Assembly (NCBI GenBank): GCA_017694345.1
Contig: JADIMY010000117.1
Span: forward strand, 17,865 to 81,864
Origin: Candidatus Onthovivens merdipullorum
GTDB taxonomy: Bacteria > Bacillota_I > Bacilli_A > RFN20 > CAG-826
DNA: 64,000 bases
Direction: 5' to 3'
In this document: in pieces, positions 13,262 to 64,000 of the stretch
Layout of the letters: the number at the start of each line of letters is the position of its first letter
Numbering within the stretch: the first letter of the stretch is position 1
Position numbers and translations under genes: made by a program
The notes under the pieces: generated by a model
Databases searched by the model: none
What the model saw: the letters and a program-made list of their open reading frames with translations, nothing else
What the model was told of the DNA's origin: nothing

Positions 13262-13307
13262 AAAAGCCTCTAAATCTAGAAAAATAACTGAGATCTAGAG
13301 GCTTTTT
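13262..13307. terminator. probable bidirectional rho-independent terminator
   Basis: The sequence AAAAGCCTCTA...TAGAGGCTTTTT forms a GC-containing stem flanked by an A-run and a T-run. It lies between the lipoprotein operon end and the glcK start. Confidence 0.4.
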
Positions 13308-13346: not shown

Positions 13347-15479
13347 CTATCTATAAATACCGATTAATAAGTAGTAACTAGTTACATCATTATTAGTACT
13401 TTCTCCAGTTGCTCCATAATAATATGTATTTGTTGTGGTTTCTTTATAAAATTCAATACCACTAGAATTAGTACCAGCATTAGCGTAACCACTATTATTA
13501 AGAGCTTCATAATATTTATTATAAGCTTCTTCTGCTTCTTCTAAAGTATCGTAATATAAAGTTAAATTAACTCTATTATTAGTTCCATCGTAGTATTGAC
13601 TAACAGTAACAGGTTTATAATCTGTTTCACCTATTAAAGTTTCTAGTCCAGGGACTACTAGGTTTTCATTTTGTAAACGAGCTTTAATCTTATTAATAAC
13701 ATCATTATATCCCGTTGTTACATTAGTTGTAGCATTATAATAAATTTGCACTGTCATTTTTTGAGAATCACTATCGTAAATAACAATAATTGTGTAATAT
13801 CCATCAACACTATTAAATGTTGGGCAACTTGTATTTTCGAAAACTGTATCACTAACTCTTTCCCATTCATTAGTATTTACTAAAGTTTCTAAATATGCGT
13901 TATATGTTTCGGTAGTTACTTCAGTTCCAATTATATAATATGTATAAGAAATGCTTGATGACCCGTTATTTAAATAGCCACTTCCATAGCTATATGCATC
14001 AAATTTAGGAATATTAGTAATTGTTCCTCCACCAATATTTTGATTTCTAAACCAAACGGAAGCTCTATCAAAAGCTGTATCGTGATGGAAATATACTACG
14101 GTTGCTATAGATGTATTTAAATCAATGTATCTATCTTCTTCATAGTATTGAATTCTAATACCATACTCTTCAGTAGGACTATAACAAGTATAACTATAGT
14201 AATTAGATAAATCGGACATCGATATATTCCATCCCTTTTCTTCTAAATCGAGCATAATATTATCTAATTGTTTTGTAGTTAAACCAAAAATATTTAATCC
14301 AGGGCCAGTATAAGATGAATAAGTATAACCTAATATAACTCCATAAAGTTTTGCACCGTCAAATAAAGGATAAGTATCTGTAGGATATTCAAAATTTGTA
14401 TATTCGGCATAACTTTCACTAAGAGATTCTTCATCAATACTAGAAGTTGCTACACTATAAGTTGCAATATAAAGCATTTCATTAGTAACACCTTCTAAAT
14501 TTCGAAATAAAGGAACATTACTAACACTACCAATCTGTGTTACAGCACTACCGAATTGATCCACATACATATTAGTTCCAGCTAATTGGAAATTATTATT
14601 TTCTAAATAATCTCCTAAACTCGTAACAGGGTCTAAATCGCTACTTTTTGGAGTATAAAAAATTGTCTTAAAAGTAATATCGCCATTAGTAACTTCTCTA
14701 GTTAAAAACTTATTATCAATATTATCTTTATCATTTTCAGCTAACAGAAAAGAATCATCATTTATGTACAGTGAATAATCAATCCCAGCAAAATTACTAG
14801 CAAAATATTTGCTAGGAAATTTGCCTATTTCATCATTAAACCTATAAGAAACTACTAGATTTCTACTACTTTCATCACAATTTAATTCTAGTAAGTAACT
14901 TTCTGTAGTATCTAAATATGTATTATCACTTACTAAAGTATAATGATAATCATCGACTAAATTTTGCAAATAAGTATCATATGTAGATTGCGAAACATTT
15001 TCAAAAGTAAAAGAATTCAAATTTGTTTTATCTACACTAATACGATCAGTTTTAAGTAAAGGGATGGGAGAAATATCTAATGTTTCGTAAGTTCCTAAAT
15101 AAGAAGAAACTGTTTCTTTTACTTCACTAGGAAAATCTTTATAAGCAATCCCAGCATAAACTTGGATGTCTTCATTTATAGGTGTGTCATAAGAAAAAAC
15201 ATTTACATCATTTTCTCCTCTATTTAACTCATTAGCATCTTGAATTGTGTAATACCATCCTTCAAGTTCATATTTATCATCACTAATAAAATCATCTAAT
15301 TCACTTGTATCAGTAGTTACATCATAAATAGTTTCACCTTTAGGAACATTTATTTTAAAATTTTCACCAGTTTGTAAATTAGAAAATAAAACTTCATAAG
15401 TCTCACTTTCGTTATTGCAAGAGGCTAAGCCTCCAAGAAGGCTTAGTCCTAATATTGGAATTATTTTTTTAAATTGCAT
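13347..15479 (-). CDS. surface lipoprotein with Listeria-Bacteroides-type repeat, Y/N/T-rich
   Basis: It has a signal peptide with lipobox LASC (MQFKKIIPILGLSLLGGLASC) and the GWY repeat motif (YELEGWYYT). It is 710 aa, with GGAGGT 8 nt upstream. Confidence 0.7.
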   Translation of the reverse strand: MQFKKIIPILGLSLLGGLASCNNESETYEVLFSNLQTGENFKINVPKGETIYDVTTDTSELDDFISDDKYELEGWYYTIQDANELNRGENDVNVFSYDTPINEDIQVYAGIAYKDFPSEVKETVSSYLGTYETLDISPIPLLKTDRISVDKTNLNSFTFENVSQSTYDTYLQNLVDDYHYTLVSDNTYLDTTESYLLELNCDESSRNLVVSYRFNDEIGKFPSKYFASNFAGIDYSLYINDDSFLLAENDKDNIDNKFLTREVTNGDITFKTIFYTPKSSDLDPVTSLGDYLENNNFQLAGTNMYVDQFGSAVTQIGSVSNVPLFRNLEGVTNEMLYIATYSVATSSIDEESLSESYAEYTNFEYPTDTYPLFDGAKLYGVILGYTYSSYTGPGLNIFGLTTKQLDNIMLDLEEKGWNISMSDLSNYYSYTCYSPTEEYGIRIQYYEEDRYIDLNTSIATVVYFHHDTAFDRASVWFRNQNIGGGTITNIPKFDAYSYGSGYLNNGSSSISYTYYIIGTEVTTETYNAYLETLVNTNEWERVSDTVFENTSCPTFNSVDGYYTIIVIYDSDSQKMTVQIYYNATTNVTTGYNDVINKIKARLQNENLVVPGLETLIGETDYKPVTVSQYYDGTNNRVNLTLYYDTLEEAEEAYNKYYEALNNSGYANAGTNSSGIEFYKETTTNTYYYGATGESTNNDVTSYYLLIGIYR

Positions 15480-15495
15480 ATTAATTTACCTCCAG

Positions 15496-18400
15496 TTATA
15501 AGGTAAATGAACCATCTGAGCAAGTAACAGTTACATTATTTGCCGCTGGAATTCCACAATTTCTATTTGCTTCAAGTACAGCTCTAGCTTGTTCCATTGT
15601 TCCATTAAATGTAATTTCACTTAGATTTGTACAACTCGAGAAAACATAGCTTTCTATCGTAATTTCAGGATTTTCGAAAGTTAATTTAGTTAAACTTGAA
15701 CATCCAGAAAACGCATAAGTTGCAACATCTGTAACATTAGCTGGGAGTACAATTTCTGTTAAAGATTTACAATTATAGAACATCCTATTTGATATAGAAG
15801 TAAAGTTTTCATTTGTTGGCAAAGCAATAGATTGCAAAGCACTTCCTTCAAATGCACTACTTCCAATTTCTGTTACTCCACTAATATCAAAATTCAATGT
15901 TTGTAGTGATGTAGTCGATTTAAATGCAGAACTTTGTATTATTTTTAATTGTCCAACTTCAAGTCCTTCAATAGTAGTAAAGTCAGCACAAGAATCAAAT
16001 GTTTGAGTTGGGATTTCGCTAAATGTAGGATCTTCAACTTTTAATTTAACTAAGCTACTATGAGCAAATATTTGTGATCCATCAAGTTTTTGACCTGCTT
16101 TTAATGTAAATTCCGTAATTCCAGTTCCATAAAATGCGTAATTATCAAAACTAGTGATAGTTGCAGGTAATTCAGATAAATTTAAGCTTGAACAATTATA
16201 AAACATCATTCCGCTTATTACTGTTAAATTAGCTGGTAAAGTAACACTTGTTAATTTAGTACACCCATTAAATATACCTGTTCCAATATCGACTAAACTA
16301 TCAGGTAGAACTATAGAAACTAAGCCAGTATTACTGAAAACATTATTTCCTAAAGTAGTTAAAGTATTTGGTAAAGTTATACTTTCTAAAGCATTACATC
16401 CATAAAATGCATACTCTTCGATAGTGGTTAACCCATTTGGTAATCCAACAGTAGCTAAATTTGAACATTCATTGAATAAATAGCTTGGTATAACTTCTCT
16501 AGTTCCAATAAATGTTGCGCTAGTTAATTGAGAACATCCATAAAATACGCTCGTATCTAATGTAGCATTTTCAGGAATTGTAACTTCAGTTAACCCTGTA
16601 GTTCTAAATGCACTATTTCCAATTGTAGTAAGTGTCGCAGGAAGTGTCATATTTATTAAATGCGAACAACCATTAAATGCATCTTTTCCAATAACTTGTA
16701 AATTTGTTAATTTAGAAATATCAACAGTTTCTAAAGTTGTACATCTTTTAAACATTGATTCACTAATAGTTGTAAATTCAGGATTATTAAATGTAGCTTT
16801 TGTTAATCCACTACAAGAACTAAACACTGACTCATTAGTTAATCCAGTATTATAAATAACTTCATTAATATTTGAACAAGAATTAAAAGCACTAGCTCCT
16901 AAATAAGTTAAGTCACTATTTAAAGTAACTGTCCCAGTAATACCTTTACAACTACTAAAGGCACTATCACCAATATATGTTAAGCTAGAAGGAACATTCA
17001 TTGTTTCTACCTTACTCATATTTTGGAAAGCTTGATTAGCAACTTCTTTTAAAGTATCTGGCAATGTCACACTACCAGTAACTCCACTCATACCATAGAA
17101 AGCTCTTTCTCCTACTTTTTCTAAATTAGAAGATAAAACTAATGATGTAATCTTGCTTTTTCCACTTAAGAAATAAGGATTAACTTCTTTAACAGTATCT
17201 GGCATCACATAACTTGTGGCTGTATTTTTAATATCAAGCCAGAATAAAGCTTTAGTTTGATCTTTGTTATAAACAGCAAGACCATCTTCTCCAATACTAA
17301 TCTTAGTATTATTTTCACTTACTTTGATTTCAGCTAAATTACTACAACCATTAAATATATCACTACCGAAGTTTTCCATATTTGCGCCAAAGGTAAACGA
17401 AATTATTCCAGAACAGCTCTTGAAAGCTCCATCACCAATAGTAGTAACACTATCAGGCATAACTAAAGTTCTTTGCATGTCCTTTTTACTAATTGTAGAT
17501 TGAAAGGCATAATTCCCAATTTCTTCTAATTTATCATTAAATTCGAAGTGTGTACCTTCATTATCATAAATTCTACAAGTATAGAATGCATAATCATCAA
17601 TTTTTGTAACATTAGCTCCAAATACAATTGTTCTAAAACTATAAATATTTTTAAATGCATAAGGAGCGATCTCTATAACCTCATCACGAATCGTATATGA
17701 CGTATTAGGAATTACTTCACCATTTTCATCTTTTCCTAAATAAAAAGGAACTCTTACAAGTATTTTCTTTCCAGCAGTATATAAAACTCCATCTTCATCA
17801 ACTTCATAATTAGTACATCCTGGAGTTAATCCAAATGCTTTAATCATACCACTAGAATTGCTTATATTACCAAAAGCATTTCCAATTGCTTCAATAGTCA
17901 TATTTTGTCCAATATTTACATATTGAAGTGAACCACAGCCAGTAAAACAATCTTCACCAACATTAGTTAATGAGTTAGGAAATGTTACTTCTACTAATTT
18001 TGAGCAACTTTGGAAAACACTTTCACCCAAAGTAGTTAAACTTGTTTCTTTATCAGCTTGGAAATCTACGCTTACTAAATTAGTACAACTTTGGAAAGCT
18101 GAATCAGCAATTGTAACCACACTTGTTGGAATTAATAAATTTGTAAGAGCTTTACAATTTTTAAAAGCACTATCGCCAATTGAAACTAAACCTTCATTTA
18201 ATGTTAAGGTTTCCATTTTTTCATTGTAATAAAAAGCATTAGCACCAATTTCTTTAATATTTGCCCCTAAAGTTACAGAAGTAATTTTTCTACCATAACT
18301 TCCTGAAGTATTTGCATAAAAAGCCTCTTCTCCAATTGCAACAATTGGTAAACCTTGGAATGTATCAGGAATTACAAGGTCTGTATGAGGATTACCTTCT

Positions 18401-19131
18401 AGATCAGTTTCACTTGCTCCAATTACGATATAGCCAGTTCGATCACCATTTAAAGCATATGTAAATAATCCATCACTATTACTTGCTTCTCTAGCTTCAT
18501 AATGAGCTACTAAAGTTGTATCTTCACTAAAAGTAAAAGTAGCTAAATCGATTAAAGTTTCAGTTTCATCTCCTTCTAGATACCATCCATCAAAAACATA
18601 ATAATATTCTTCATCAGGAGCTCTACTAGGAGTAACACCATCATAAGTAGTTGTCGAATTTTCTAAAATATTGGCATCAGTTTCTAAAACTGTTCCATCA
18701 TAATTTAAAAAAGTAACAGTAACCTTTTCTTTATCTCTAACAGTAATATTAAAACTTACACTTTTATAATCAGGGTCACTTGCTAAACTTACAGTAACTT
18801 CTATCGAATCACTAACTTCATTAAGTAAAGTTCCACTTGGTATAGATAAAATTAAGTCACTATCACTTACTGTTACTGGACTAGATTTAACTCCATCTAC
18901 TACCTCATATCTTTGAACTGAAATTCCAGCACTAGAAAAATATTCACCAACTACATAATTAAGTTTAGTAGGAGCACTAACTAAGACCAAATATTTTCCA
19001 TCTTCTTCAGTTTCTCCTCCAACTGGATCTTCTTGTGTGTTTTGATTATCTCTACATCCACTTAATAATCCACTACCTAAAACAAGTAAAGAACTTAACC
19101 CTAAAACGACTAATTTTTTATTTCTTTTCAT
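15496..19131 (-). CDS. large surface lipoprotein with BspA-type leucine-rich repeats
   Basis: The 1211-aa ORF has lipobox LLSGC, an N-terminal Ig-like region, a List-Bact repeat (YVFDGWY) and more than 20 tandem ~23-aa LRR_5-like units (xLxxVxIPxxVTxIGxxAFxxC). Confidence 0.75.
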   Translation of the reverse strand: MKRNKKLVVLGLSSLLVLGSGLLSGCRDNQNTQEDPVGGETEEDGKYLVLVSAPTKLNYVVGEYFSSAGISVQRYEVVDGVKSSPVTVSDSDLILSIPSGTLLNEVSDSIEVTVSLASDPDYKSVSFNITVRDKEKVTVTFLNYDGTVLETDANILENSTTTYDGVTPSRAPDEEYYYVFDGWYLEGDETETLIDLATFTFSEDTTLVAHYEAREASNSDGLFTYALNGDRTGYIVIGASETDLEGNPHTDLVIPDTFQGLPIVAIGEEAFYANTSGSYGRKITSVTLGANIKEIGANAFYYNEKMETLTLNEGLVSIGDSAFKNCKALTNLLIPTSVVTIADSAFQSCTNLVSVDFQADKETSLTTLGESVFQSCSKLVEVTFPNSLTNVGEDCFTGCGSLQYVNIGQNMTIEAIGNAFGNISNSSGMIKAFGLTPGCTNYEVDEDGVLYTAGKKILVRVPFYLGKDENGEVIPNTSYTIRDEVIEIAPYAFKNIYSFRTIVFGANVTKIDDYAFYTCRIYDNEGTHFEFNDKLEEIGNYAFQSTISKKDMQRTLVMPDSVTTIGDGAFKSCSGIISFTFGANMENFGSDIFNGCSNLAEIKVSENNTKISIGEDGLAVYNKDQTKALFWLDIKNTATSYVMPDTVKEVNPYFLSGKSKITSLVLSSNLEKVGERAFYGMSGVTGSVTLPDTLKEVANQAFQNMSKVETMNVPSSLTYIGDSAFSSCKGITGTVTLNSDLTYLGASAFNSCSNINEVIYNTGLTNESVFSSCSGLTKATFNNPEFTTISESMFKRCTTLETVDISKLTNLQVIGKDAFNGCSHLINMTLPATLTTIGNSAFRTTGLTEVTIPENATLDTSVFYGCSQLTSATFIGTREVIPSYLFNECSNLATVGLPNGLTTIEEYAFYGCNALESITLPNTLTTLGNNVFSNTGLVSIVLPDSLVDIGTGIFNGCTKLTSVTLPANLTVISGMMFYNCSSLNLSELPATITSFDNYAFYGTGITEFTLKAGQKLDGSQIFAHSSLVKLKVEDPTFSEIPTQTFDSCADFTTIEGLEVGQLKIIQSSAFKSTTSLQTLNFDISGVTEIGSSAFEGSALQSIALPTNENFTSISNRMFYNCKSLTEIVLPANVTDVATYAFSGCSSLTKLTFENPEITIESYVFSSCTNLSEITFNGTMEQARAVLEANRNCGIPAANNVTVTCSDGSFTL

Positions 19132-19144
19132 AATTATTACCTCA

Positions 19145-20911
19145 TTAAATACTTATTGTTGTTTGATTAATATCATCTATTACGAAATTTAAATGATAAT
19201 AAAAACTTTCACCATCAATTAACCTAAAGTAAATATCACCACTAATAGGATCTGTGATATTACTTCCCATATTTAAAGTCATATATGAATAATTTCTATA
19301 AAAATATAAAGGACCATCGCTAGTATACATCTTAGGAGAACTTACTCCTTCTAAGGTATGGTATAAAAGTACTAACGCTAATGAATCATTATAAGAAGTC
19401 ACTCGATATTCATTTTCACCAATTACTTCATATACTGGATATCTCCAAGTAGAAGGATTAAACAAAGCATTTGGTCGATAAGTTGCACCTAAATATGTCG
19501 AATTTTGCCAATTGCTAATCACATTTCCACTTTCATAATCTGTATCGTATTGGTCTATCAATGTATAAGTACCACTATCACCATTATAGATATTTGGTCT
19601 AGACCCAGGTTGATCTAAAATAATTGCATTATCAAAATCATATCGATCATCAATAAAGCTAAAGTTATTACTCATAAAGCCATCACTTGTCACTTTTATC
19701 ACCATATTATCTAAAGTAGGGACATAACCTAAATAAAGCTCATCAGGAGTAATCTCTTCTCCACTTAAATCTTCATATCTGCCGTTTGTGGTAATTGTAT
19801 AGCTATTAATACCAGTAATTCTATTTTCTAAACTAGATGTACTAGTTAATGTTTCTACTGGTGCGTTATTAACAAAATTTTCAACTGGATCGATACTTGT
19901 TTGATTTACATCAGCTAATTTATAAGGTCCTTCTAAAATCGAATTACCACCTGAAACTTGACTAATAACATAAATATTTAATCCATCATTTTCAACGACA
20001 GGAGATAAATAAACACTAAAGAAAGTAGTGTCGTTTACAGTATGTTGATAAGTTAAACCAAGAGCATTAAGTGTAGCTCTAAAGATACTACTAGTTTCAG
20101 TAATATAAGGAATTCCATAAGCGTATTCATCTCCAAAAACTTCAGCGATTGAAGAATCATAAAGCATTGTTTCACTATTAAAACAATCATTTAAATCAGG
20201 GTAGCTACTATTAAAACTAGCTTGATCAAGCTCTGCACCGCTTTCATTCATAAAAGGAATAAAAGAATCAGGATCTTCTACACTATTTAATTGATAGTAA
20301 TACCCTTCTTTATTAGTACCATTAATTGCTACGCCCATTAAATTAGTAGGACTATAAAAATAATTATCACCTCGATAAAAAATAGGAGTTTCTTCGCTTA
20401 CGTGATTAATAAAATTTTCATCCATCGTAAAGCTTTGATTAACGGTATAATTACTTATATCGTGTGTTTCAAAATACTTATTAACACTACTTGTTACATC
20501 GTTATCTTTAACTTCTAAAAGGAAATAATTAGTTACTCCATTACTAGTAATTTTTAATACTAAAGTACCAGCTCTAGTAAAAGTTATCTCATGAGGTTTT
20601 TCAATTGTTACTCCACTAGGAATAGTATATTGACTTAAAACATCAGGATTAGAATAAACTTCATAGGTAAAATCTAAATCTTCTTTTTCTATACTGGTTT
20701 CATTACTTCCAGGAACAATTTTTACTACTTCATCTAGCTTTAAAGTATCGCCAACTTTTAAATCATCGATTCCCTCTAAAGAAATAGTTCTAGTTTGATT
20801 ATTGATAACGGGTGTTTCACCTTGGTTTTTATTATCTTCACTACAAGAATATAATCCTATACTTAAAGTTGATAAGGCTAAAACAATTAAGCTTTTTCTT
20901 TTAATTTTCAT
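19145..20911 (-). CDS. surface lipoprotein (Ig-like N-domain, Y/N/S/T-rich body)
   Basis: The lipobox is GLYSC. I chose the third in-frame ATG (MKIKRK), which has a perfect GAGGAGG 9 nt upstream. The start overlaps the upstream gene end by 11 nt. Confidence 0.65.
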   Translation of the reverse strand: MKIKRKSLIVLALSTLSIGLYSCSEDNKNQGETPVINNQTRTISLEGIDDLKVGDTLKLDEVVKIVPGSNETSIEKEDLDFTYEVYSNPDVLSQYTIPSGVTIEKPHEITFTRAGTLVLKITSNGVTNYFLLEVKDNDVTSSVNKYFETHDISNYTVNQSFTMDENFINHVSEETPIFYRGDNYFYSPTNLMGVAINGTNKEGYYYQLNSVEDPDSFIPFMNESGAELDQASFNSSYPDLNDCFNSETMLYDSSIAEVFGDEYAYGIPYITETSSIFRATLNALGLTYQHTVNDTTFFSVYLSPVVENDGLNIYVISQVSGGNSILEGPYKLADVNQTSIDPVENFVNNAPVETLTSTSSLENRITGINSYTITTNGRYEDLSGEEITPDELYLGYVPTLDNMVIKVTSDGFMSNNFSFIDDRYDFDNAIILDQPGSRPNIYNGDSGTYTLIDQYDTDYESGNVISNWQNSTYLGATYRPNALFNPSTWRYPVYEVIGENEYRVTSYNDSLALVLLYHTLEGVSSPKMYTSDGPLYFYRNYSYMTLNMGSNITDPISGDIYFRLIDGESFYYHLNFVIDDINQTTISI

Positions 20912-22709
20912 TTCCATATACCTCCTCATATTGAGTAAGTAAACTTTCTTTTATTTCACTTAAATCAGTTACTCCGATGTCACTAACAGTCGTTTCTAAA
21001 GTTAACCAATAATTTTTGCTTAACATATCATCGATACTAGGAGTAAATAAATATCCTGTTCTAATTATTAATTCTTCTAAAATTCCACTATCATCGTAAT
21101 GACTTTCAAATTCGACGTAAGCATCACCTGAATTGTCAGCAATCGTAGTTAAAGGTACTTGTGATCCATATTGAAAGTGAAAACCAAATCCAACACTTCC
21201 ACTAATAATTGAATTGTTATTACTAATATTATTAGTTAAGTGATAAGTGACAACTTTTCCATCGCTACTCACTGTTTTACTAGGATAAGAATTATTTAAA
21301 TAGCTGACATTAAAAGCTAAAGTAGGTAAATAGCAACCCATATTGTCATAACTCCACCAATTAGCAAATGAATAGTCGTATGGATATTGAACATATTCTT
21401 CAAGTAATTCATAATTTCCATCATTTAATGGTGAATTATAACGATATGTTTTATTATCAATATTGATAAGTCCACCAGGAATTATATTATCTGTTCCAGG
21501 AGTACCACTAAAGTTATCGTTAAAAACTATATCTTTATTAATCTTTTTAACTTTACTTCTTCTATATCTAGATCCAAAGACAACATTATATTCGGCACTG
21601 CCTTTAGATAATTCAACTCCTTCTTCATCAATAACTCTAGGTACACAGGTTACAGTGTAATTCATAACTTCTGTTAAATACCTGAGATCTTCTTGTAAGG
21701 AAGTTGTATCTTCTTTTGGCGGAGCTATAAAACTTGCTACATAATTATCTAAAGTTTCTACTTTAGTTTCATTAACTCCACTTAATCTAATTTCATTAGT
21801 ATATGCGTAATAACTTAAATCACTTGTCGTATAGATTGGTAAAAAATATAGATAATCTCCGACTAAACTTACCATTATAGAATAAGGAATATAAGTGTAA
21901 CCACCCATCGAAAACTGGGCGTATTGAGCACCAACATCGTTAAATAATGCTGGGGTGTAAGTTGAATATACTGCCATATAATGGTATTTACTAAATTGAG
22001 GTAAGTTAGGGTCATTACTAAATAAAGTCGTAAATGACCATAAATCACCTTTAGCATAAAAATTTAAATCCGTATAAGTTTCTTTAAAAGTTGCTTTATC
22101 AGTTACTGGAGGAACAGTGACTTCTAATTCATCATTATCTAAAGTAAAGTTATAAACATTATCATCTAAACTCGATAAGATATAACCTAATCCATTAGTT
22201 TCATCATAAACATAATTGCTAGATCTATAGACAGTTTGAGCTACTATTTGATTACCTTGACTATCTCTATCTAGAACTTCTAGTTTATAGTTATCAGTTA
22301 TTGATGCTAATTTATCTTGAATATTGCTAAATTCTTTTGATTCACCAACTTCTAAAGTTAAAGTAGTTTTATCACCATTACTCGCTTCTAAAAGCAAAAC
22401 AACATTGCCAACATTTGCTAATACAAGTGTATTTGAGTTCCCATTACCTCCTTCAATGTAACTTGTAACACCAGATTCATCACCACTTAATACATACGAT
22501 TTAAATGTTAATTCTTCTTGTGTTTCATCTTTATATCCGATGTATTCATCTAATTTAATATCCATTCCTCGTTCTAGATTATCTAATGAATTTTTCATAT
22601 AGAATCCAGTTTCAACTTGGTTTTCTACTATTGCTTCATTAGAATCACAACTAGAAACTAAGAATGTAGATAATGCAATAAATGACAAAAACAATTTTCC
22701 TTTTTTCAT
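20901..22709 (-). CDS. surface lipoprotein, paralogue-like of 19145..20911
   Basis: The lipobox is LVSSC (MKKGKLFLSFIALSTFLVSSC), with GGGGGAA upstream. It has an Ig-like N-domain and a composition similar to the neighbouring lipoprotein. Confidence 0.65.
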   Translation of the reverse strand: MKKGKLFLSFIALSTFLVSSCDSNEAIVENQVETGFYMKNSLDNLERGMDIKLDEYIGYKDETQEELTFKSYVLSGDESGVTSYIEGGNGNSNTLVLANVGNVVLLLEASNGDKTTLTLEVGESKEFSNIQDKLASITDNYKLEVLDRDSQGNQIVAQTVYRSSNYVYDETNGLGYILSSLDDNVYNFTLDNDELEVTVPPVTDKATFKETYTDLNFYAKGDLWSFTTLFSNDPNLPQFSKYHYMAVYSTYTPALFNDVGAQYAQFSMGGYTYIPYSIMVSLVGDYLYFLPIYTTSDLSYYAYTNEIRLSGVNETKVETLDNYVASFIAPPKEDTTSLQEDLRYLTEVMNYTVTCVPRVIDEEGVELSKGSAEYNVVFGSRYRRSKVKKINKDIVFNDNFSGTPGTDNIIPGGLINIDNKTYRYNSPLNDGNYELLEEYVQYPYDYSFANWWSYDNMGCYLPTLAFNVSYLNNSYPSKTVSSDGKVVTYHLTNNISNNNSIISGSVGFGFHFQYGSQVPLTTIADNSGDAYVEFESHYDDSGILEELIIRTGYLFTPSIDDMLSKNYWLTLETTVSDIGVTDLSEIKESLLTQYEEVYGNEN

Positions 22710-22959
22710 CTACTTTTCCCCCATCGCCAAAATTATTTTATTAATTGTCTTTCTTAAATTAAATTTAAAAATTGCATTAATTTTTCATTAATAAAAAAAA
22801 TAAAAAACGGATGTAATCATAATATTTACAAAAAGTAAAATTTGATTTTTAATTAAAATAAAAGCTTATCAATTGACTTTAATAACTAAATATATACTAG
22901 AAATCGACTAGTCTAGTACCATCTTTTAATTCAAAGTCAACTTATTTTAATAATCTTAA

Positions 22960-22979
22960 AAATATTGAATGCAATATTT
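22960..22979. promoter_or_regulatory. 8-bp inverted repeat AAATATTG-aatg-CAATATTT upstream of rnj
   Basis: This is a perfect dyad 25 bp upstream of the predicted -35 box and could be an operator. Confidence 0.25.
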
Positions 22980-23003
22980 TTAAGTTCCTATCTAAAAAAT
23001 TTG

Positions 23004-23032
23004 TTGTTTAAGTATTTCTTTTTTTATATAAT
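23004..23032 (+). promoter_or_regulatory. putative sigma-70-type promoter of rnj
   Basis: A TTGTTT box lies 17 bp upstream of TATAAT, followed by GGAGGTG and the ATG at 23080. Confidence 0.35.
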
Positions 23033-23079
23033 CTAGTTGCTTTTAAAAACATATGTTATGGAGGTGATTTTTATTAATT

Positions 23080-33375: not shown

Positions 33376-33465
33376 GGAGAAATACCCAAGTGGTTTAAGG
33401 GGACGGTCTCGAAAACCGTTAGGAGTGAATAGCTCGCAGGGGTTCAAATCCCCTTTTCTCCGCCA
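33376..33465 (+). tRNA. tRNA-Ser (anticodon CGA)
   Basis: It has a GGAGAAA/TTTCTCC acceptor stem, a CTCGAAA anticodon loop, a long variable arm, the TTCAAAT T-loop and an encoded CCA. Confidence 0.9.
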
Positions 33466-37171: not shown

Positions 37172-37717
37172 ATGAAAATTTTTAAAATTGTAAAAGATAA
37201 CAAAAAAAGTTTAAGAGAAAAATCATTAGAAATAACATTCCCTTTAGATAAAGAATTAGAAGATACTTTACTTGATATGGTTGAATATTTAAAAATTAGT
37301 CAAAATGACGAATTAGCTAAAAAGTATCATCTTCGAGGTGGTGTAGGATTAGCTGCTCCACAAATTGGAATAAATAAAAGAATGTTAGCAATTTATGTGG
37401 AAATGGACGAAAAAGTATACGAATATGCTTTAATAAACCCTAAAATAATCTCTGAATCAGCAAAACTTACTTATTTACAAGGTGGAGAAGGCTGTTTATC
37501 AGTAGATTCCGAACATAATGGTTATGTTTATCGTCACTACAAAATAAAAGTTCAAGCTTTTAATTTATTAACTAATAAAGAAGAAATTTTAGAATTTAAA
37601 GGATATTTAGCAATTATTGCTCAACACGAAATAGATCATCTAGATGGTGTTTTGTTCTATGATCGCATCAATAAATTAAATCCTTTTGAAGTTAGAAAAA
37701 ATAGCATTGCTATTTAA
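37172..37717 (+). CDS. def: peptide deformylase
   Basis: It has all three deformylase motifs: GVGLAAPQIG, EGCLS and HEIDHLDG. Confidence 0.9.
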   Translation: MKIFKIVKDNKKSLREKSLEITFPLDKELEDTLLDMVEYLKISQNDELAKKYHLRGGVGLAAPQIGINKRMLAIYVEMDEKVYEYALINPKIISESAKLTYLQGGEGCLSVDSEHNGYVYRHYKIKVQAFNLLTNKEEILEFKGYLAIIAQHEIDHLDGVLFYDRINKLNPFEVRKNSIAI

Positions 37718-38279
37718 TAGAGCTATTATATTGATATATTTTATTTAGTTTATAAATATAGTCGGATAGTTCAGTTGTCGAAGTATCACATTTTTGATTT
37801 ATCCGCATTTTAATAACACTAAAGCAACCTTCCATTAAAAATACATTAGTGTAATTAACAAACTTTTTATCATTTCCAGAAGTAGCATAATTATTATAAA
37901 AAATTTCTTCGATTATAGAATTCGTAAAAAGTTTCTTTGGAAAATTAGGATCAACATTGTTATTAATTAAAAGTTTAGCAAACTTATAATTATCTTTAAT
38001 ATAATCTAAAACTTTTTTTAATCTCTTCTTTAATGGAATATTAATATTCTTAGATTCATTAATATAGCTCATAATGTCTTCAATGAAACGGTCTTCCATG
38101 AACTGGAGTAATTCTATTTGAGAATTAAAATGTTTATAGAAAGTACTTCTATTTATACCTGCAACATCACATAATTCTTTAATTGAAACATTATAAATAC
38201 TCTTTTCTTCTAATAAAGAAATTAAAGCATCTTCTAATAATTTTATCGTTAATCTTGCTCTTTGATTTAACTCTACCAT
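37710..38279 (-). CDS. TetR-family transcriptional regulator
   Basis: It has an N-terminal HTH (VSIKELCDVAGINRSTFYKHF) and is 189 aa. It is divergent from the ABC transporter genes. Confidence 0.75.
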   Translation of the reverse strand: MVELNQRARLTIKLLEDALISLLEEKSIYNVSIKELCDVAGINRSTFYKHFNSQIELLQFMEDRFIEDIMSYINESKNINIPLKKRLKKVLDYIKDNYKFAKLLINNNVDPNFPKKLFTNSIIEEIFYNNYATSGNDKKFVNYTNVFLMEGCFSVIKMRINQKCDTSTTELSDYIYKLNKIYQYNSSIK

Positions 38280-45629: not shown

Positions 45630-46787
45630 TTAACTAGTTTTAAAATAATCAAACCTTGATTCACCTTTAATATTAATAACTTCTCTACTTTCTTTTTCTT
45701 CTTTAAAGTTTTTACTTTCTTCAATAAGTAATTTAATTATTAATCTTAAACATTTTTTAATAGTGGTTTTTTCTATTTCATTAAGCTTATTATATGTCTT
45801 TATTAAGCCTATTAAAGTCTTAACAAGATTAGACCTAAATTCAATGATATCTTTTGCTTTAGTTCCTTTGATTAATAAATAACATAAATTAATGAATTCT
45901 TTTCTTTCTTCTTTAGGTAAATCTTTAACATATTTACTAATTGCAATATTTAATGTTTTACTAGTAGAAGATAAATAAGTTGCAAATATAAAGTGATTAT
46001 TTTTATCTATTATCCAGCTAAATAAATCGTGTTGTAATAAACCTTTAGTACTACTACTTATTATATAAGTATCTAAAGGATTATTAAAAACCATTCCAAA
46101 AATTGACATCGATGGAACAATAGTTATTATTTTATTTTTTGTAATTTCATCATTTACTTTTATATTTAATCCAGGTCCATCAAAATTAAAGACATTTACT
46201 ATTTTATTTTTTACTCTTTTATATGAAAAATAACTAGCATATAAAGCTAAGTTTCCGCCTTTAGAATGACCGCCTAAATATAAGTTTTTAATTCCTTTAA
46301 GTTTCAATTTATTTACATAGTTTTTTGCACTAATTTGTGAAGGAATTGTATCTAAATAACTTAAATTAAAATCTTCTTTCCACCCAATTATAGATAAATC
46401 AGTCCCACTAAAAGAAACATAAATAGTATTGTGACTAATTTTTACACTTAAAGAACAAAATTGCTTTTCAGATTTTTTAGAAATCTCACGCTCAAAATTA
46501 AATATTTTAAGATCTTTAAATCGTTTTGTTCTTACTAAAACTTTTAAAAATCTATTTCTAGGAGTTTCAATATCTGCTTTTTTAACTAATTCAGGATAAA
46601 GAAAATATATATGTGTAGCTTCCTTTATTGTTAACTCATAATTTTCTTTATCTAGCATAAAATAAAAATGATAATAAGATAAATTAGCAAATATTAAAGC
46701 ATCGATAATATTAAAATTTAGTTCATTAAAATCATAATTTCCAACTCTTTCTAAATAACTAAATAGGTAAGAAACATTGTATTTCAT
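45630..46787 (-). CDS. Mbeg1-like/DUF2974 alpha/beta-hydrolase (lipase class 3-like)
   Basis: It has the GHSKGG nucleophile elbow (LYLGGHSKGGNLALYASYF) and is 385 aa. Confidence 0.6.
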   Translation of the reverse strand: MKYNVSYLFSYLERVGNYDFNELNFNIIDALIFANLSYYHFYFMLDKENYELTIKEATHIYFLYPELVKKADIETPRNRFLKVLVRTKRFKDLKIFNFEREISKKSEKQFCSLSVKISHNTIYVSFSGTDLSIIGWKEDFNLSYLDTIPSQISAKNYVNKLKLKGIKNLYLGGHSKGGNLALYASYFSYKRVKNKIVNVFNFDGPGLNIKVNDEITKNKIITIVPSMSIFGMVFNNPLDTYIISSSTKGLLQHDLFSWIIDKNNHFIFATYLSSTSKTLNIAISKYVKDLPKEERKEFINLCYLLIKGTKAKDIIEFRSNLVKTLIGLIKTYNKLNEIEKTTIKKCLRLIIKLLIEESKNFKEEKESREVINIKGESRFDYFKTS

Positions 46788-59444: not shown

Positions 59445-59471
59445 AAAGCCTGCAAAACTAAAATATTTTTT
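59441..59471 (+). repeat. copy e of the ~30-bp motif
   Basis: The sequence TTAAAAAGCCTGCAAAACTAAAATATTTTTT spans from the stop of the orphan fragment to the stop of the DUF2075 gene. Confidence 0.6.
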
Positions 59472-61330
59472 TAATTTTTGTTTAATTTTTCTTTTAAATA
59501 ATTTCTTAATGCTTCATCTTCACAATAAATGTAGCAACCTTTAATTCCTCTAGTTAAAAGTACTTTGTAAGTTCTTCTAATTAGTTTATCAGCTTCTTCA
59601 TTTGAAGTACTTTTTAATCTAATTCCACTTGTCTTATCATCTTTTGATATTGCATTACGGTTTGTTTGTACATGTCCATCTTTATAATAGAGATCTTTAC
59701 CAATAATAATGCCGACATAATCAAATTCCATTCCTTGACATGTATGAATACAACCAACTTCTTCAAAAGAATTAGGATTTACTGCCCAATGGTCATCGTT
59801 AGCTAAATTCCATTTTGCTTTAAAACCATTTGGAAGTATGATATCCCATTCGCCTTTTTTATTTTTTACATTCCAATCATAACAATAACCTGCAATCATT
59901 CTAGTTTTGTTATTTATTTTATTTAATTCTCTTAATTCATCTCTCATTTTGATAGGATCATCAAAAACCTTAACTTTAAGATTATTAAATTCAAAATTTG
60001 TATTAGCTGTTTGCTTAATTTCTAATAAATTATTTAAAAAAGAAATATAACCATCACTTCCATCACATCTAAATTGAGAAGTTAATTCATAAGGTTTATG
60101 AATAATTGCATTTTCATTTTTAGCATACATAATAATTGAATTTACATCATATTTATCATTAATAGTAATTCTTTGGTCATCATCAACAAAAAATATTGAA
60201 ACTTTACTTGCTTTAATAGCGTCTTCAAGCATATCATTACCTAAATATCTATAAGGTTTCTTTTGCATACGATGTGCTTCATCAAAAATACCTACATCAA
60301 GTCCGTTATATATCGTATTAGGTAAACACCATGGAGATTGAATTGCTTTTTGAAGGTTAACCATCTTTTTAGCATTACCTTTTGCTAATAAGTTAGCATA
60401 ACACTTTCTTGGAGCCATATTTTTTGTTATATAAGAGGTATTTAGTTTTAAATCTATAATACATCTAGCTAATATATTAATTGCTAAAACTGATTTCCCA
60501 GTTCCTGGCCCCCCAGTAATTATAAGAACATGCTTCCTAGTGTCATTTTGAGATTCTTTGATTGCTTTCATAATTTTATCATAAGCAACTACTTGTTCAT
60601 CAATCATATGAAATTCTTCATTTCCACAAAGCATTGAATCTAAGGCATCTTGAAGAGATTTAGTAGGTTTTAATCTTCCTTCTTCAATTTTATAAAGTAA
60701 AGAACCATCATTTGCTTTTAACTTTATATAATTTTTAACAAAGTTTCTTAATTTTAAAACATCACTTTGTAAAAATACTGGCGCTTCTTCTATCCATTCA
60801 TGATATAAATTATCTTCGATTATAGGACGATATTCTTCACTTAAATTGTGCAAATATGCACATGGTTTTAATGTCTTATTATTAATTGAAACTGAATCAT
60901 TAGAATAATCTAATATTAATTGTTTATAAGAATAAGCTTGATAAGAAGGATGAGCAACAGGTTCATGACTTCTTAAATCAGACATTATTGAATGATCACA
61001 ATTATCATCAACTTTATTAACTCTAGCCCATTGTTTTAATTCAATAATAACGACATGGTCTTCTGTATTATTATTGCCCATAATCATAAAATCAACACGT
61101 TTAGAAGTTTGAGGAATATTATATTCAATAGCAACTTGACATTCGTTATCAAAATAAGAATCATCTAAAACATCTTTCATAAAGTGTAAAGAATTATTCC
61201 GTGAATTTATTTCACTGGCTGATCCTCCACTTAAACCTTTCTCTCTAAGTGTTTTTAAAAGAATGCTTTGCATCGTATTAAAAGTAACATCAGTTCTAAA
61301 ATCTTTTAATGACTTATTATAAATAATCAT
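59471..61330 (-). CDS. DUF2075-type protein: N-terminal PD-(D/E)xK-like nuclease motif + P-loop SF1-like helicase/ATPase domain
   Basis: The 619-aa ORF has the nuclease-like motif VDFMIMG...IIELKQW. It also has Walker A (ITGGPGTGKS), Walker B (IFDEAH) and further helicase-like motifs. Confidence 0.7.
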   Translation of the reverse strand: MIIYNKSLKDFRTDVTFNTMQSILLKTLREKGLSGGSASEINSRNNSLHFMKDVLDDSYFDNECQVAIEYNIPQTSKRVDFMIMGNNNTEDHVVIIELKQWARVNKVDDNCDHSIMSDLRSHEPVAHPSYQAYSYKQLILDYSNDSVSINNKTLKPCAYLHNLSEEYRPIIEDNLYHEWIEEAPVFLQSDVLKLRNFVKNYIKLKANDGSLLYKIEEGRLKPTKSLQDALDSMLCGNEEFHMIDEQVVAYDKIMKAIKESQNDTRKHVLIITGGPGTGKSVLAINILARCIIDLKLNTSYITKNMAPRKCYANLLAKGNAKKMVNLQKAIQSPWCLPNTIYNGLDVGIFDEAHRMQKKPYRYLGNDMLEDAIKASKVSIFFVDDDQRITINDKYDVNSIIMYAKNENAIIHKPYELTSQFRCDGSDGYISFLNNLLEIKQTANTNFEFNNLKVKVFDDPIKMRDELRELNKINNKTRMIAGYCYDWNVKNKKGEWDIILPNGFKAKWNLANDDHWAVNPNSFEEVGCIHTCQGMEFDYVGIIIGKDLYYKDGHVQTNRNAISKDDKTSGIRLKSTSNEEADKLIRRTYKVLLTRGIKGCYIYCEDEALRNYLKEKLNKN

Positions 61331-62064: not shown

Positions 62065-64000
62065 TTATTCTTCAAATAAACTCATTTGTTCAAATGCTTC
62101 ATCTAAATTGTGTATTTTCCCAATTGTAAATTCAAATAAACCAATAATTGATTCATAATCTTTAACTGCACTATTAGGTATTCTAATTAGTTTAATATTA
62201 TATTTAGCACAGATTTCTTCTTTTTTTCTATCTCTAAGAGCAGTTTCTTTACTACCAACATGCTCACCACCATCAATTTCAAAAACAACTATTGTTTTAT
62301 ATTGACGATTAAACAGGCCTCCACTAACTTGAACTATAACATCAAATTCTTTCATACCTATTTCTTTATGGTCAAAATAATTTACATTTTTAATAGCTTT
62401 TTCTACAAGGACGTTTCTTTCAATTCTAAATTTAGAACCTCGACGATTAAAATAAGGTTTAATAGTTTCAAAAAACTCCCTTTCGCTTTTTGAATCATTT
62501 GAAAAATCATAATTAATAACTGCTTCACTTTGAGTAACACTAATTTCTCCGTTACTAAAAACATAATCTGAAAGAGCTTTAATATCATTAGTGTCGTTTT
62601 TACTTAAGGCATCTATTGCTTCTTTATCTCCAACAAAAATAAATCTATTTTTTGCTCTAGTAACCGCAACATTAATTAATTCATAATTATTTTTAATCCA
62701 ACCCATTGTTCTTTTTGCAGTTTTTAAAGATAAAGCTGAAGACATAATAATTACTGATTTTTCTGAACCTTGTAAGGTATGAACTGTACCGGCTTTAACA
62801 TCTTCAATCCCAAATTGTTCTAAATATTCATTAATTAAAGCTGCTTGATTAACAAATGGGGTTATTATTCCAACATCCTTATAATTATTTTCTTTAATAA
62901 TTTTTGCTATTTCATAAGCCTCTTCATTATAGGAATTTCTTAATTTAGCCTTAGAAGTATTTTGAACATTTACATAAACTAAATCACCTAAATTTTCATT
63001 AAGTAACTTAAGTTGTTTCTCATAAAATCTTTGATTAACAAAACTTGCAATTCTTTTACCGCATCGATAATGGTATCTTAATAAGATACATTTCGAATTA
63101 TTATCTTTCCTTAACATTAAAGAAAGAATTGAATTTCTAACATAGTTATATTCTTTACTAATGTTATATTTATTCATTAAATCAAGGTTAACATCATTTT
63201 CAATTACCGTAACTGGTTGAAGCTGATTTGTATCTCCTACTAATAATAAATTTTCTCCTCTAACAATAGGAATTAATGAAAATGCAATATTGCATTGTCC
63301 TGCTTCATCCATTATTACTAAATCAAAATGATTAGTTGCGCTTCCTAGCTTTTCTGAAGATAAATTAGTAGATAAAATAATAGGAAAAATAGACAAAAAA
63401 CGTCTTAAATTCAAGTTATTTTTTAAAAATTTATTAAATTTAGAAACTGCAATATTCTCATCTTCAAGTACAATAATTTCCCTTAATTCCTTAAAAGTTG
63501 GACCTAATAGTTTTTTATATCTTAAAATTGATGAGTAATATAAAAAGTTATGAAAATCTAAATCATCAAAGACTGATTTTGTACATTTAAATATATCTTT
63601 ATCAGTAATATTTTTACTTGTGTTTAGTTTATATTTATAAAGTTTAAGTTCAGATTCTAATTTCTCATTAATTTGATTAATCGATATAAAATCTTTTAAT
63701 TTTCCAAGAGTATTGATACGCTCTTCTAAATCTAATTTATTTTCATATTCTATTAGTAACTTTTTAAGTTCATTAAAGTTTGATAATGATTTATTTTTAT
63801 TATCTTCAATTAGATTATCATATGTCTTTACATCTTGATTTTTTGATATATAAGTAAGTAATTCTTTTAACTTTTTAATCGTGTCAAGCATTTCAATATT
63901 ATTTCCAATACGAATCATTGGAAAAATAATTTCTTGACTACTATTTTTAAATTTAAAAGACTCAATCATCTTTTTATAAATATCAATGACAGGATGATTG
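62065..64000 (-). CDS. SF1B (Upf1-like) helicase with C-terminal DUF559/Vsr-like endonuclease domain, N-terminus outside the window
   Basis: It has helicase motifs DEAGQ, GDTNQLQP, a Q-motif region, TVHTLQGSEK and VAVTRAK. The C-terminal ~120 aa are DUF559-like (VVFEIDGGEH). The reading frame stays open to position 64000 and no Walker A lies in the window. Confidence 0.7.
   Translation of the reverse strand, partial: NHPVIDIYKKMIESFKFKNSSQEIIFPMIRIGNNIEMLDTIKKLKELLTYISKNQDVKTYDNLIEDNKNKSLSNFNELKKLLIEYENKLDLEERINTLGKLKDFISINQINEKLESELKLYKYKLNTSKNITDKDIFKCTKSVFDDLDFHNFLYYSSILRYKKLLGPTFKELREIIVLEDENIAVSKFNKFLKNNLNLRRFLSIFPIILSTNLSSEKLGSATNHFDLVIMDEAGQCNIAFSLIPIVRGENLLLVGDTNQLQPVTVIENDVNLDLMNKYNISKEYNYVRNSILSLMLRKDNNSKCILLRYHYRCGKRIASFVNQRFYEKQLKLLNENLGDLVYVNVQNTSKAKLRNSYNEEAYEIAKIIKENNYKDVGIITPFVNQAALINEYLEQFGIEDVKAGTVHTLQGSEKSVIIMSSALSLKTAKRTMGWIKNNYELINVAVTRAKNRFIFVGDKEAIDALSKNDTNDIKALSDYVFSNGEISVTQSEAVINYDFSNDSKSEREFFETIKPYFNRRGSKFRIERNVLVEKAIKNVNYFDHKEIGMKEFDVIVQVSGGLFNRQYKTIVVFEIDGGEHVGSKETALRDRKKEEICAKYNIKLIRIPNSAVKDYESIIGLFEFTIGKIHNLDEAFEQMSLFEE

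Follow-up and report, generated by a model that had tools for sequence, protein, structure and literature searches.

We describe a four-gene locus in a 64,000-nt (64 kb) stretch of Candidatus Onthovivens merdipullorum, a metagenome-assembled genome (MAG) from chicken gut; this stretch is hereafter the window, and all nucleotide coordinates refer to it. Four consecutive genes on the minus strand, here called A, B, C and D in the order of transcription, are predicted to form a single operon encoding four surface proteins with N-terminal lipid anchors. Sequence comparison across lineages indicates that the locus is a cassette with conserved gene order and not a chance run of lipoprotein genes. 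On balance we lean, by a modest margin of confidence, towards a picture in which the four products form one hetero-oligomeric surface complex for adhesion or ligand capture, based on the leucine-rich repeats (LRRs) of protein C. What appears to be new is the fixed four-gene module together with the A/B and D families, C being a new member of the BspA/TpLRR class. The proteins of the window correspond to entries MBO8428059-61 of the MAG.

Organization of the operon

Gene A (20901-22709, minus strand; 602 aa) is followed by gene B (19145-20911, minus; 588 aa), gene C (15496-19131, minus; 1211 aa) and gene D (13347-15479, minus; 710 aa). Genes A and B overlap by 11 nt, and gaps of 13 nt and 16 nt separate B from C and C from D, respectively. 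A Shine-Dalgarno site precedes each of the four genes, with the sequence GAGGT or GGAGGT in the B-C and C-D gaps. For gene B, the ATG at 20911 is the better choice of start, because AGGAGG lies 9 nt upstream and the resulting gene shares 11 nt with the end of A; the alternative upstream ATG at 20929, where the open reading frame (ORF) begins mechanically, is without a usable ribosome-binding site. A check of the ORFs agreed in full with the strand, tight spacing and coordinates given in a first-pass annotation of the locus.

The operon is closed by an intrinsic terminator hairpin at 13262-13306 (minus strand; dG -23.1 kcal/mol, z = -5.7, with none of 200 shuffled sequences folding as well), which is followed by a U-rich tail, UUUUAUAUU; a terminator had been proposed earlier at this end of the operon. 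A simple consensus terminator scan missed this hairpin because of its loop size, and its two matches lie inside coding sequence, at chance level. At the other end, the presumed promoter is contained in an AT-rich intergenic region of 370 bp (22710-23079), which had likewise been recognised in the first-pass annotation and which the operon shares with a divergent RNase J gene. An inverted repeat in this region, ACTAGA...TCTAGT (22915-22945, minus strand), stands beside a TTGACT hexamer and is invariant between strains; it could be an operator.

The N-termini of all four proteins have Lys or Arg residues, then a hydrophobic stretch, then a lipobox: VSSC in A (Cys21), LYSC in B (Cys23), LSGC in C (Cys26) and LASC in D (Cys21). 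Lipoprotein signals were judged by a rule, namely the pattern [LVI][ASTVI][GAS]C within about 15-35 residues together with a charged n-region and a hydrophobic h-region, and by this rule-based pattern A to D are all predicted lipoproteins. The lipobox cysteines had been picked out before, and they are at least 90% conserved both in an alignment of 30 A/B relatives and among 11 D relatives; the lipobox pattern is present in 29 of the 30 A/B relatives, the exception being a truncated gene call. In a scan of window ORFs of at least 100 aa (52 ORFs in the window), A to D were the only real cases, the sole extra match being a false one at an internal site of an FtsX permease. Since no other ORF in the window carries a real lipobox, the occurrence of four such genes in a row is not explained by chance. 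The composition of the proteins is as first described, with Tyr at 7.8-10% in A, B and D and high Ser, Thr and Asn content in all four.

The genus Onthovivens is placed in GTDB as Bacilli; RFN20; CAG-826, and its CGG codon is reported to be reassigned from Arg to Trp (PMC13092985, with the lineage in a supplementary table). Among the 19,460 codons of the window ORFs there are 2 CGG, compared with 45 CGA, 59 CGT and 377 AGA, a count that fits a rare or reassigned codon. The two CGG sites are codon 159 of the ORF at 37710-38279 (minus) and codon 44 of that at 59471-61330 (minus); the translations of A to D stand, because the four genes contain no CGG codon.

Protein C is a BspA-type LRR protein

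From its sequence, protein C is unmistakably an LRR protein of the BspA/TpLRR type. The Pfam family LRR_5 (PF13306) matches in 9 stretches with an E-value of 8.9e-162 (530 bits versus a cut-off of 27.7), and relatives in the PDB (4fs7, 4gt6, TpLRR 6mlx and PcpA 4cp6) were found with E-values of 1e-21 to 1e-51. The earlier view that the bodies of the four proteins have no recognisable motif must therefore be given up for C, and it stands for A, B and D. The protein is laid out as an N-terminal region, a Flg_new domain and a BspA-type LRR solenoid of about 1000 aa, and it has no C-terminal anchor. The solenoid (15499-18489, minus; residues about 215-1211) has a Cys every 23-25 residues along its length, and from this spacing and the overall length we put the number of repeats at roughly 40, each about 23 aa long.

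The Flg_new (Listeria-Bacteroides repeat) domain occupies 18502-18720 (minus; residues 138-210) and contains the conserved F-x-GWY motif. Its match to Pfam (PF09479; E-value 1.5e-4) scores 22.3 bits, below the cut-off of 27; all C orthologues retain the segment, and it shows homology to the N-terminal domain of D (hhalign P 3.9e-6). Membership in Flg_new is likely for both the C segment and the D domain, at a level below the curated threshold. The repeat had been assigned to two proteins in the first-pass annotation, an assignment that falls short for C at the Pfam threshold and is supported by the C-D profile homology and by the beta-grasp fold matches of D presented below.

Protein C shares its repeat type with BspA of Tannerella forsythia, TpLRR of Treponema pallidum (6mlx), pneumococcal PcpA (4cp6), HupY/LrrG of group B Streptococcus and the BspA-like proteins already known in mycoplasmas (PMC4206474). 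Surface display, which is predicted for C, is common to BspA-type proteins, and a Flg_new domain often accompanies them. The mode of anchoring differs, being a predicted N-terminal lipid in C and LPXTG, choline-binding repeats, a C-terminal transmembrane segment or the type IX secretion system (T9SS) in BspA-type proteins. Comparison with the NCBIfam equivalog for HupY/LrrG (NF047961) gave 176.5 bits against a cut-off of 1250, so that C is not a member; it has its own full-length orthologous group. A further difference from other BspA-type proteins is that C is always set among three specific partner lipoprotein genes.

Proteins A, B and D form two new families

Proteins A and B were suspected from the outset to be diverged paralogues, and pairwise alignment bears this out, with 25% identity over 526 aa (E-value 3e-11). 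They are ancient paralogues within a single A/B family that has A and B subfamilies. Neither A and B nor D gave a match in Pfam, NCBIfam, PADLOC, PHROGs or PDB sequences, even when all 30 A/B relatives, all D relatives or the corresponding profiles were scanned; profile matches to the PDB fell only on the signal-peptide region of other lipoproteins. A match of one A/B family member to Csn2 (E-value 0.05) and one of D to POT1 (E-value 0.017) were set aside as noise. By these comparisons, A/B and D constitute two apparently new protein families that lack both a Pfam entry and a relative of solved structure. Relatives of A/B are few: among 1.84 billion representatives, an exhaustive HMMER search with an A+B profile found just 33, nearly all of them 570-630 aa long. 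Capped word-indexed homologue searches with B, with D and with an alignment of 30 A/B sequences gave nothing beyond the cluster of the query itself and missed even paralogue A.

The 30 A/B relatives split cleanly into 13 of the A type and 17 of the B type. The invariant or almost invariant positions of their alignment are limited to Gly, Thr and Tyr, with no invariant Asp, Glu, His or Ser, nor any Cys outside the lipobox; as no catalytic-type residue is invariant, binding or scaffold roles are favoured over catalysis. A resemblance to an enzyme or a solute-binding protein would count against the adhesin or host-interaction locus suggested in the first-pass annotation, and none was found in Pfam, NCBIfam, PADLOC, PHROGs, PDB sequences or Foldseek.

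An AlphaFold2 model of B, built with the 30 relatives (pLDDT 87.7, pTM 0.81), begins with a disordered tether that leads into a Big_2-like immunoglobulin (Ig) domain (20507-20788, minus; residues 42-135), all-beta according to DSSP on the model. For this domain Foldseek returned BIG2, phage decoration and neck-whisker domains with prob 1.0 and an rmsd of about 4 Å over about 100 columns, as well as a Big_2-CBM56 match with prob 0.84; the Pfam family Big_2 (PF02368) itself has no match in A or B. The remainder of the model comprises two alpha/beta lobes (19148-20503, minus; residues 137-588, divided into 137-338 and 339-588). An alignment of one lobe to the other is weak and spans almost the whole of both (hhalign P 2e-4 over 189 columns); the lobes may have arisen by internal duplication. 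A lobe matches LolA (7z6w) locally with prob 0.99 and a TM-score of only 0.36, and the whole model has no global match in the PDB by Foldseek. A and B would each consist of a Big_2-like Ig domain and two lobes, as modelled for B and by homology for A.

The model of D (AlphaFold; pLDDT 84.2, pTM 0.67) begins with a predicted beta-grasp, Flg_new-like domain (15141-15401, minus; residues 27-113) that contains the sequence E-G-W-Y and matches ubiquitin-like folds in Foldseek (prob 0.99-1.0, TM-score on target about 0.5). One D orthologue matches Flg_new in Pfam (E-value 0.0044). The Ig-like N-terminal domains described in the first-pass annotation are supported for B, and for A by homology; for D the description is wrong, its N-terminal domain being a beta-grasp. 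The rest of the protein is made up of five repeat domains (13350-15062, minus; residues 140-710) with a beta-beta-alpha-beta4 arrangement by DSSP, related to one another by hhalign (R1-R4 P 2.5e-7; R1-R2 2.6e-4; R3-R4 7e-4; R4-R5 1.6e-3). The invariant motifs of the family include FND..G.FP, YTPK..DEDP and W...QNVGGG, and no global fold match was found for the model with Foldseek. Whole-model Foldseek matches of B or D to TbpB, PCNA, DPP-IV and a porin were rejected, with TM-scores of about 0.1 or less.

Conservation of the cassette

Relatives of the locus were found through the contigs of eight A/B relatives and a scan of genomes and metagenomes with the D profile. The order A-B-C-D is the same wherever the contig is long enough, in about a dozen lineages of gut bacteria that are uncultured and probably have no wall; at least 10 lineages besides that of the window have the cassette in full length. 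Full cassettes besides that of the window are present in L008/L012, L009/L010, L013/L017, L014/L018, L015/L019/L022, L021, L026, L027 and L028; a partial B-C-D copy (L011) and an A-B copy (L007) each reach a contig end. Sizes are about 590-635 aa for A, 570-605 for B, 1185-1260 for C and 634-711 for D, with intergenic distances of -11 to +28 nt. The genes carry lipoboxes, including those of all full-length C orthologues, and the C copies match LRR_5 and sometimes Flg_new. The GC content of the contigs ranges from 26 to 45% for full-length cassettes and is 53% for the partial copy L011.

Each cassette gene is the reciprocal, one-to-one counterpart of a gene in the window, with A orthologues always first and D always last. 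Identity to the window counterpart is 28-35% for A, 29-34% for B, 31-41% over 1200 aa for C and 28-34% for D. The duplication that gave rise to A and B must predate these lineages, since orthologues share 28-35% identity and A and B, compared across lineages, only 21-26%. The flanks are unrelated between lineages and include ABC transporters, pullulanase, RecB-like helicases, Fic, restriction-modification systems and housekeeping genes.

The carriers are labelled by NCBI as 'Mollicutes bacterium', 'Firmicutes/Bacillota bacterium', 'Bacillales bacterium UBA743/UBA4691' and 'Erysipelotrichaceae RUG13633'. Two further titles, 'uncultured Staphylococcaceae bacterium' for L012 and 'Escherichia coli isolate ... 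cleanbin' for L015, are probably wrong for low-GC Bacilli (GTDB representative genomes). Some copies deserve separate mention. The metagenome assembly L017 (2680-4541) has its A orthologue broken into two ORFs of 253 and 375 aa, and the near-identical L013 copy has it intact, at 624 aa; the break reflects a frameshift or else a fault of assembly. In L007 (1-8009), A-B is preceded by four lipoprotein genes (621+, 736, 798 and 699 aa) with Big_2 and/or LRR_5 domains, which suggests a local expansion of LRR surface proteins beside the cassette. In the partial copy L011 (71-7760), the lipobox is followed by long linkers of poly-Ser; the D protein there (654 aa) is without a lipobox, its signal peptide having been lost or mis-called. 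An apparent three-gene variant, L020 (JABLTL010038296.1, 1-7735), was rejected as a chimeric metagenome contig: its GC content, 0.55 at first, drops to 0.40 near 3.4 kb, and unrelated sequence stands in place of the first 533 aa of the C orthologue.

A candidate lipid-anchored surface complex

Analysis in the literature predicts that CAG-826 is deficient in peptidoglycan and that sortases have been lost in RFN20, and concludes that surface-protein display is reduced; RFN20 genomes are described there as reduced and scavenging-dependent. With neither peptidoglycan nor sortases predicted in the host, lipid anchoring is the obvious route by which a large LRR protein could be displayed. BspA-type LRR proteins elsewhere are involved in attachment, invasion, co-aggregation and binding of TLR2 or gp340 (PMC4206474), and it is by analogy with them that a function in adhesion or ligand capture is inferred for the cassette; the earlier suggestion of a role as an adhesin or in interaction with the host is plausible in this light.

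In the arrangement that we favour, proteins A to D would assemble on the naked cytoplasmic membrane into a single hetero-oligomeric complex. The solenoid of C would provide the binding surface for a protein or glycoprotein of the host, of mucus or of a partner cell. The A/B pair, which is likely a heterodimer, and D would act as obligatory scaffold or co-receptor subunits, and their small N-terminal beta domains would hold them away from the membrane. Such a device may replace wall-anchored LRR adhesins in a cell without a wall. Conserved gene order at such divergence is established in comparative genomics as a strong predictor of physical interaction, reportedly since Dandekar et al. in 1998.

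Several points weigh against this arrangement. Complex formation, surface exposure and the ligand are all inferred, and the conservation of gene order could also stem from shared regulation of proteins that work independently of one another. The resemblance of an A/B lobe to LolA hints at small hydrophobic ligands and not at adhesion. At the level of signals, the lipobox of B is atypical, with a Tyr at position -2 that lies outside the strict pattern and inside looser Gram-positive/Mollicutes patterns, and a promoter search in 22710-23079 gave only weak sigma-70-like matches, such as TTGATA-16-AAAAAT at 22872-22845.

A more far-reaching version of the proposal, which we put forward tentatively and hold to be rather less probable, is that the cassette encodes a previously undescribed four-subunit surface machine in which the A/B and D families are built around a dedicated LRR subunit and which occurs solely in gut Bacilli of the RFN20 type whose wall is gone or in the course of being lost. 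It could then be the principal device of these cells for attachment to host, mucus or partner cells, or for extraction of a ligand derived from host or diet. Co-transcribed surface proteins conserved as a set are also known from the Sus-like SusD/E/F/SGBP sets of Bacteroides and from gli123-gli349-gli521-gli42 of Mycoplasma mobile; in contrast to these, the cassette has neither a transporter nor a motor gene linked to it, and its homology to Sus or Gli components does not go beyond LRR stretches.

The orders RFN20, RF39 and their relatives are abundant in the gut, have reduced genomes and include no member in culture. The cassette would represent a conserved way of displaying, by lipid anchors, a giant LRR binder along with its three constant partners, which contrasts with the reduced surface display predicted for these organisms. 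It is a testable candidate for how they attach or sample their environment, and its proteins are possible surface markers or antigens for enrichment or tracking. No long-standing question is settled by the cassette alone.

Alternative functions of the cassette

Among other explanations, scavenging of nutrients or lipids fares best, and we consider it unlikely. The lobes of A and B would here be half-barrels of the LolA/LppX type that bind fatty acids, sterols, lipids and the like as hydrophobic ligands, or else other nutrients, with C and D capturing the source particle, and the supply would go to a wall-less cell with a reduced genome. This would suit the scavenging-dependent life of RFN20, and the body of A/B is bilobed with a possible internal duplication. 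TbpB/LbpB and LolA/LppX are likewise lipid-anchored and combine an N-terminal handle with two related beta-rich lobes, and TbpB and LolA were the top Foldseek matches. The local matches to LolA reach prob 0.96-0.99, with weak matches to lipocalin, TbpB and RseB. The TM-scores, however, are 0.36 or less on the target and about 0.1-0.16 on the query, and because they are so low the assignment of a LolA-type fold is tentative, the likeness being local and weak. For TbpB there is no real global similarity, given a TM-score of about 0.1 and an rmsd above 20 Å, and a TonB-dependent partner is lacking, since the organism has no outer membrane. Moreover, no transporter consistently adjoins the cassette, whose neighbours differ in every lineage.

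The first-pass annotation had also raised the possibility of a surface-variation locus, in which the lipoproteins would act independently in antigenic or phase variation, as in Mycoplasma vsp/vlp systems or expanded BspA-like families. They are surface lipoproteins in a Mollicutes-like organism, two of them are paralogues, and Ca. Mycoplasma girerdii has expanded, variable families of BspA-like proteins (PMC4206474). Variation between strains provides little encouragement for this idea. Six metagenome contigs are 99.93-100% identical to the window in DNA, with at most 4 mismatches, in a sample biased by its selection for an identical B protein. Two other strains (L023 and L025), which bring the number to three with the window, have the same four genes in the same place, with nucleotide identities of 98.5-98.7% in the cassette (a difference of about 1.4%) versus 98.2-99.5% for 12 flanking genes. 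Their dN in the cassette is 0.006-0.009, slightly above that of most flanking genes, which might be read as favouring variation; the dN/dS ratio is 0.15-0.25, versus 0-0.51 in the flanks, where the ten larger genes span 0.07-0.33, and the cassette is under purifying selection within the species.

The region contains no coding tandem repeats and no homopolymer of variable length, the upstream T tracts being constant between strains and the 370-bp region nearly invariant, and no recombinase adjoins the cassette among the genes of the window. These are not the characteristics of a phase- or antigen-variable locus of the Mycoplasma vsp/vlp/vsa type. The same four genes are found in the same order, in single copy per locus, in all strains and lineages seen, and the split between A and B predates speciation. 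The staphylococcal tandem lipoproteins (Lpl/DUF576) also have adjoining paralogous lipoprotein genes, and SAOUHSC_02783 (4eg9/4egd) gave a weak fold match (prob only 0.23-0.35); in contrast to the Lpl arrays, the cassette has two ancient paralogues in fixed order with one-to-one orthologues and is not variable in copy number. A role in variation is improbable and has been largely refuted already.

Slightly less probable still is a complex for immune evasion or immunoglobulin binding, in which an LRR-type lipoprotein would bind host antibody with the help of accessory proteins. Protein M of Mycoplasma binds host antibody, and C, as the LRR lipoprotein of a commensal that lives without a wall in the gut of birds and mammals, could do likewise, but Pfam, NCBIfam, PDB and Foldseek searches turned up nothing similar to protein M or MIB-MIP in sequence or fold, and no protease partner is present. 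We regard an organelle for surface motility or attachment, comparable to the four-gene gli operon of Mycoplasma mobile, as very improbable: both are four-gene operons of large surface proteins in Mollicutes or their relatives, and C has a partial NCBIfam match to Gli349 (NF045861; E-value 1.7e-29), but that match amounts to 101.3 bits versus a cut-off of 1750, covers short LRR-like stretches only and does not make C a member, the proteins are 5-8 times smaller, and no motor or cytoskeletal genes are nearby. Readings of the locus as a defence system or as phage genes were rejected, as PADLOC returned nothing and PHROGs only LRR families of unknown function.

Other features of the window

Just downstream of the cassette neighbourhood, the segment 9286-11280 (minus) holds the gene of a 514-aa membrane protein of the DUF1538 type alongside an ORF of 146 aa; the pair is conserved in all strains, and a P-II family gene follows it in L001. 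A Mbeg1-like (lipase-like) protein is encoded at 45630-46787 (minus), directly downstream of EF-G and among housekeeping genes. At the end of the window, a helicase of the Schlafen-group-3 type (PF09848, E-value 5e-89; 59471-61330, minus) adjoins a superfamily-1 helicase with AAA_11/AAA_12 domains and a weak DUF2726 tail (62065-63969, minus), and the two may represent a defence or mobile island. The sole RNA gene in the window is a tRNA-Ser with the anticodon CGA (33376-33465, plus strand).

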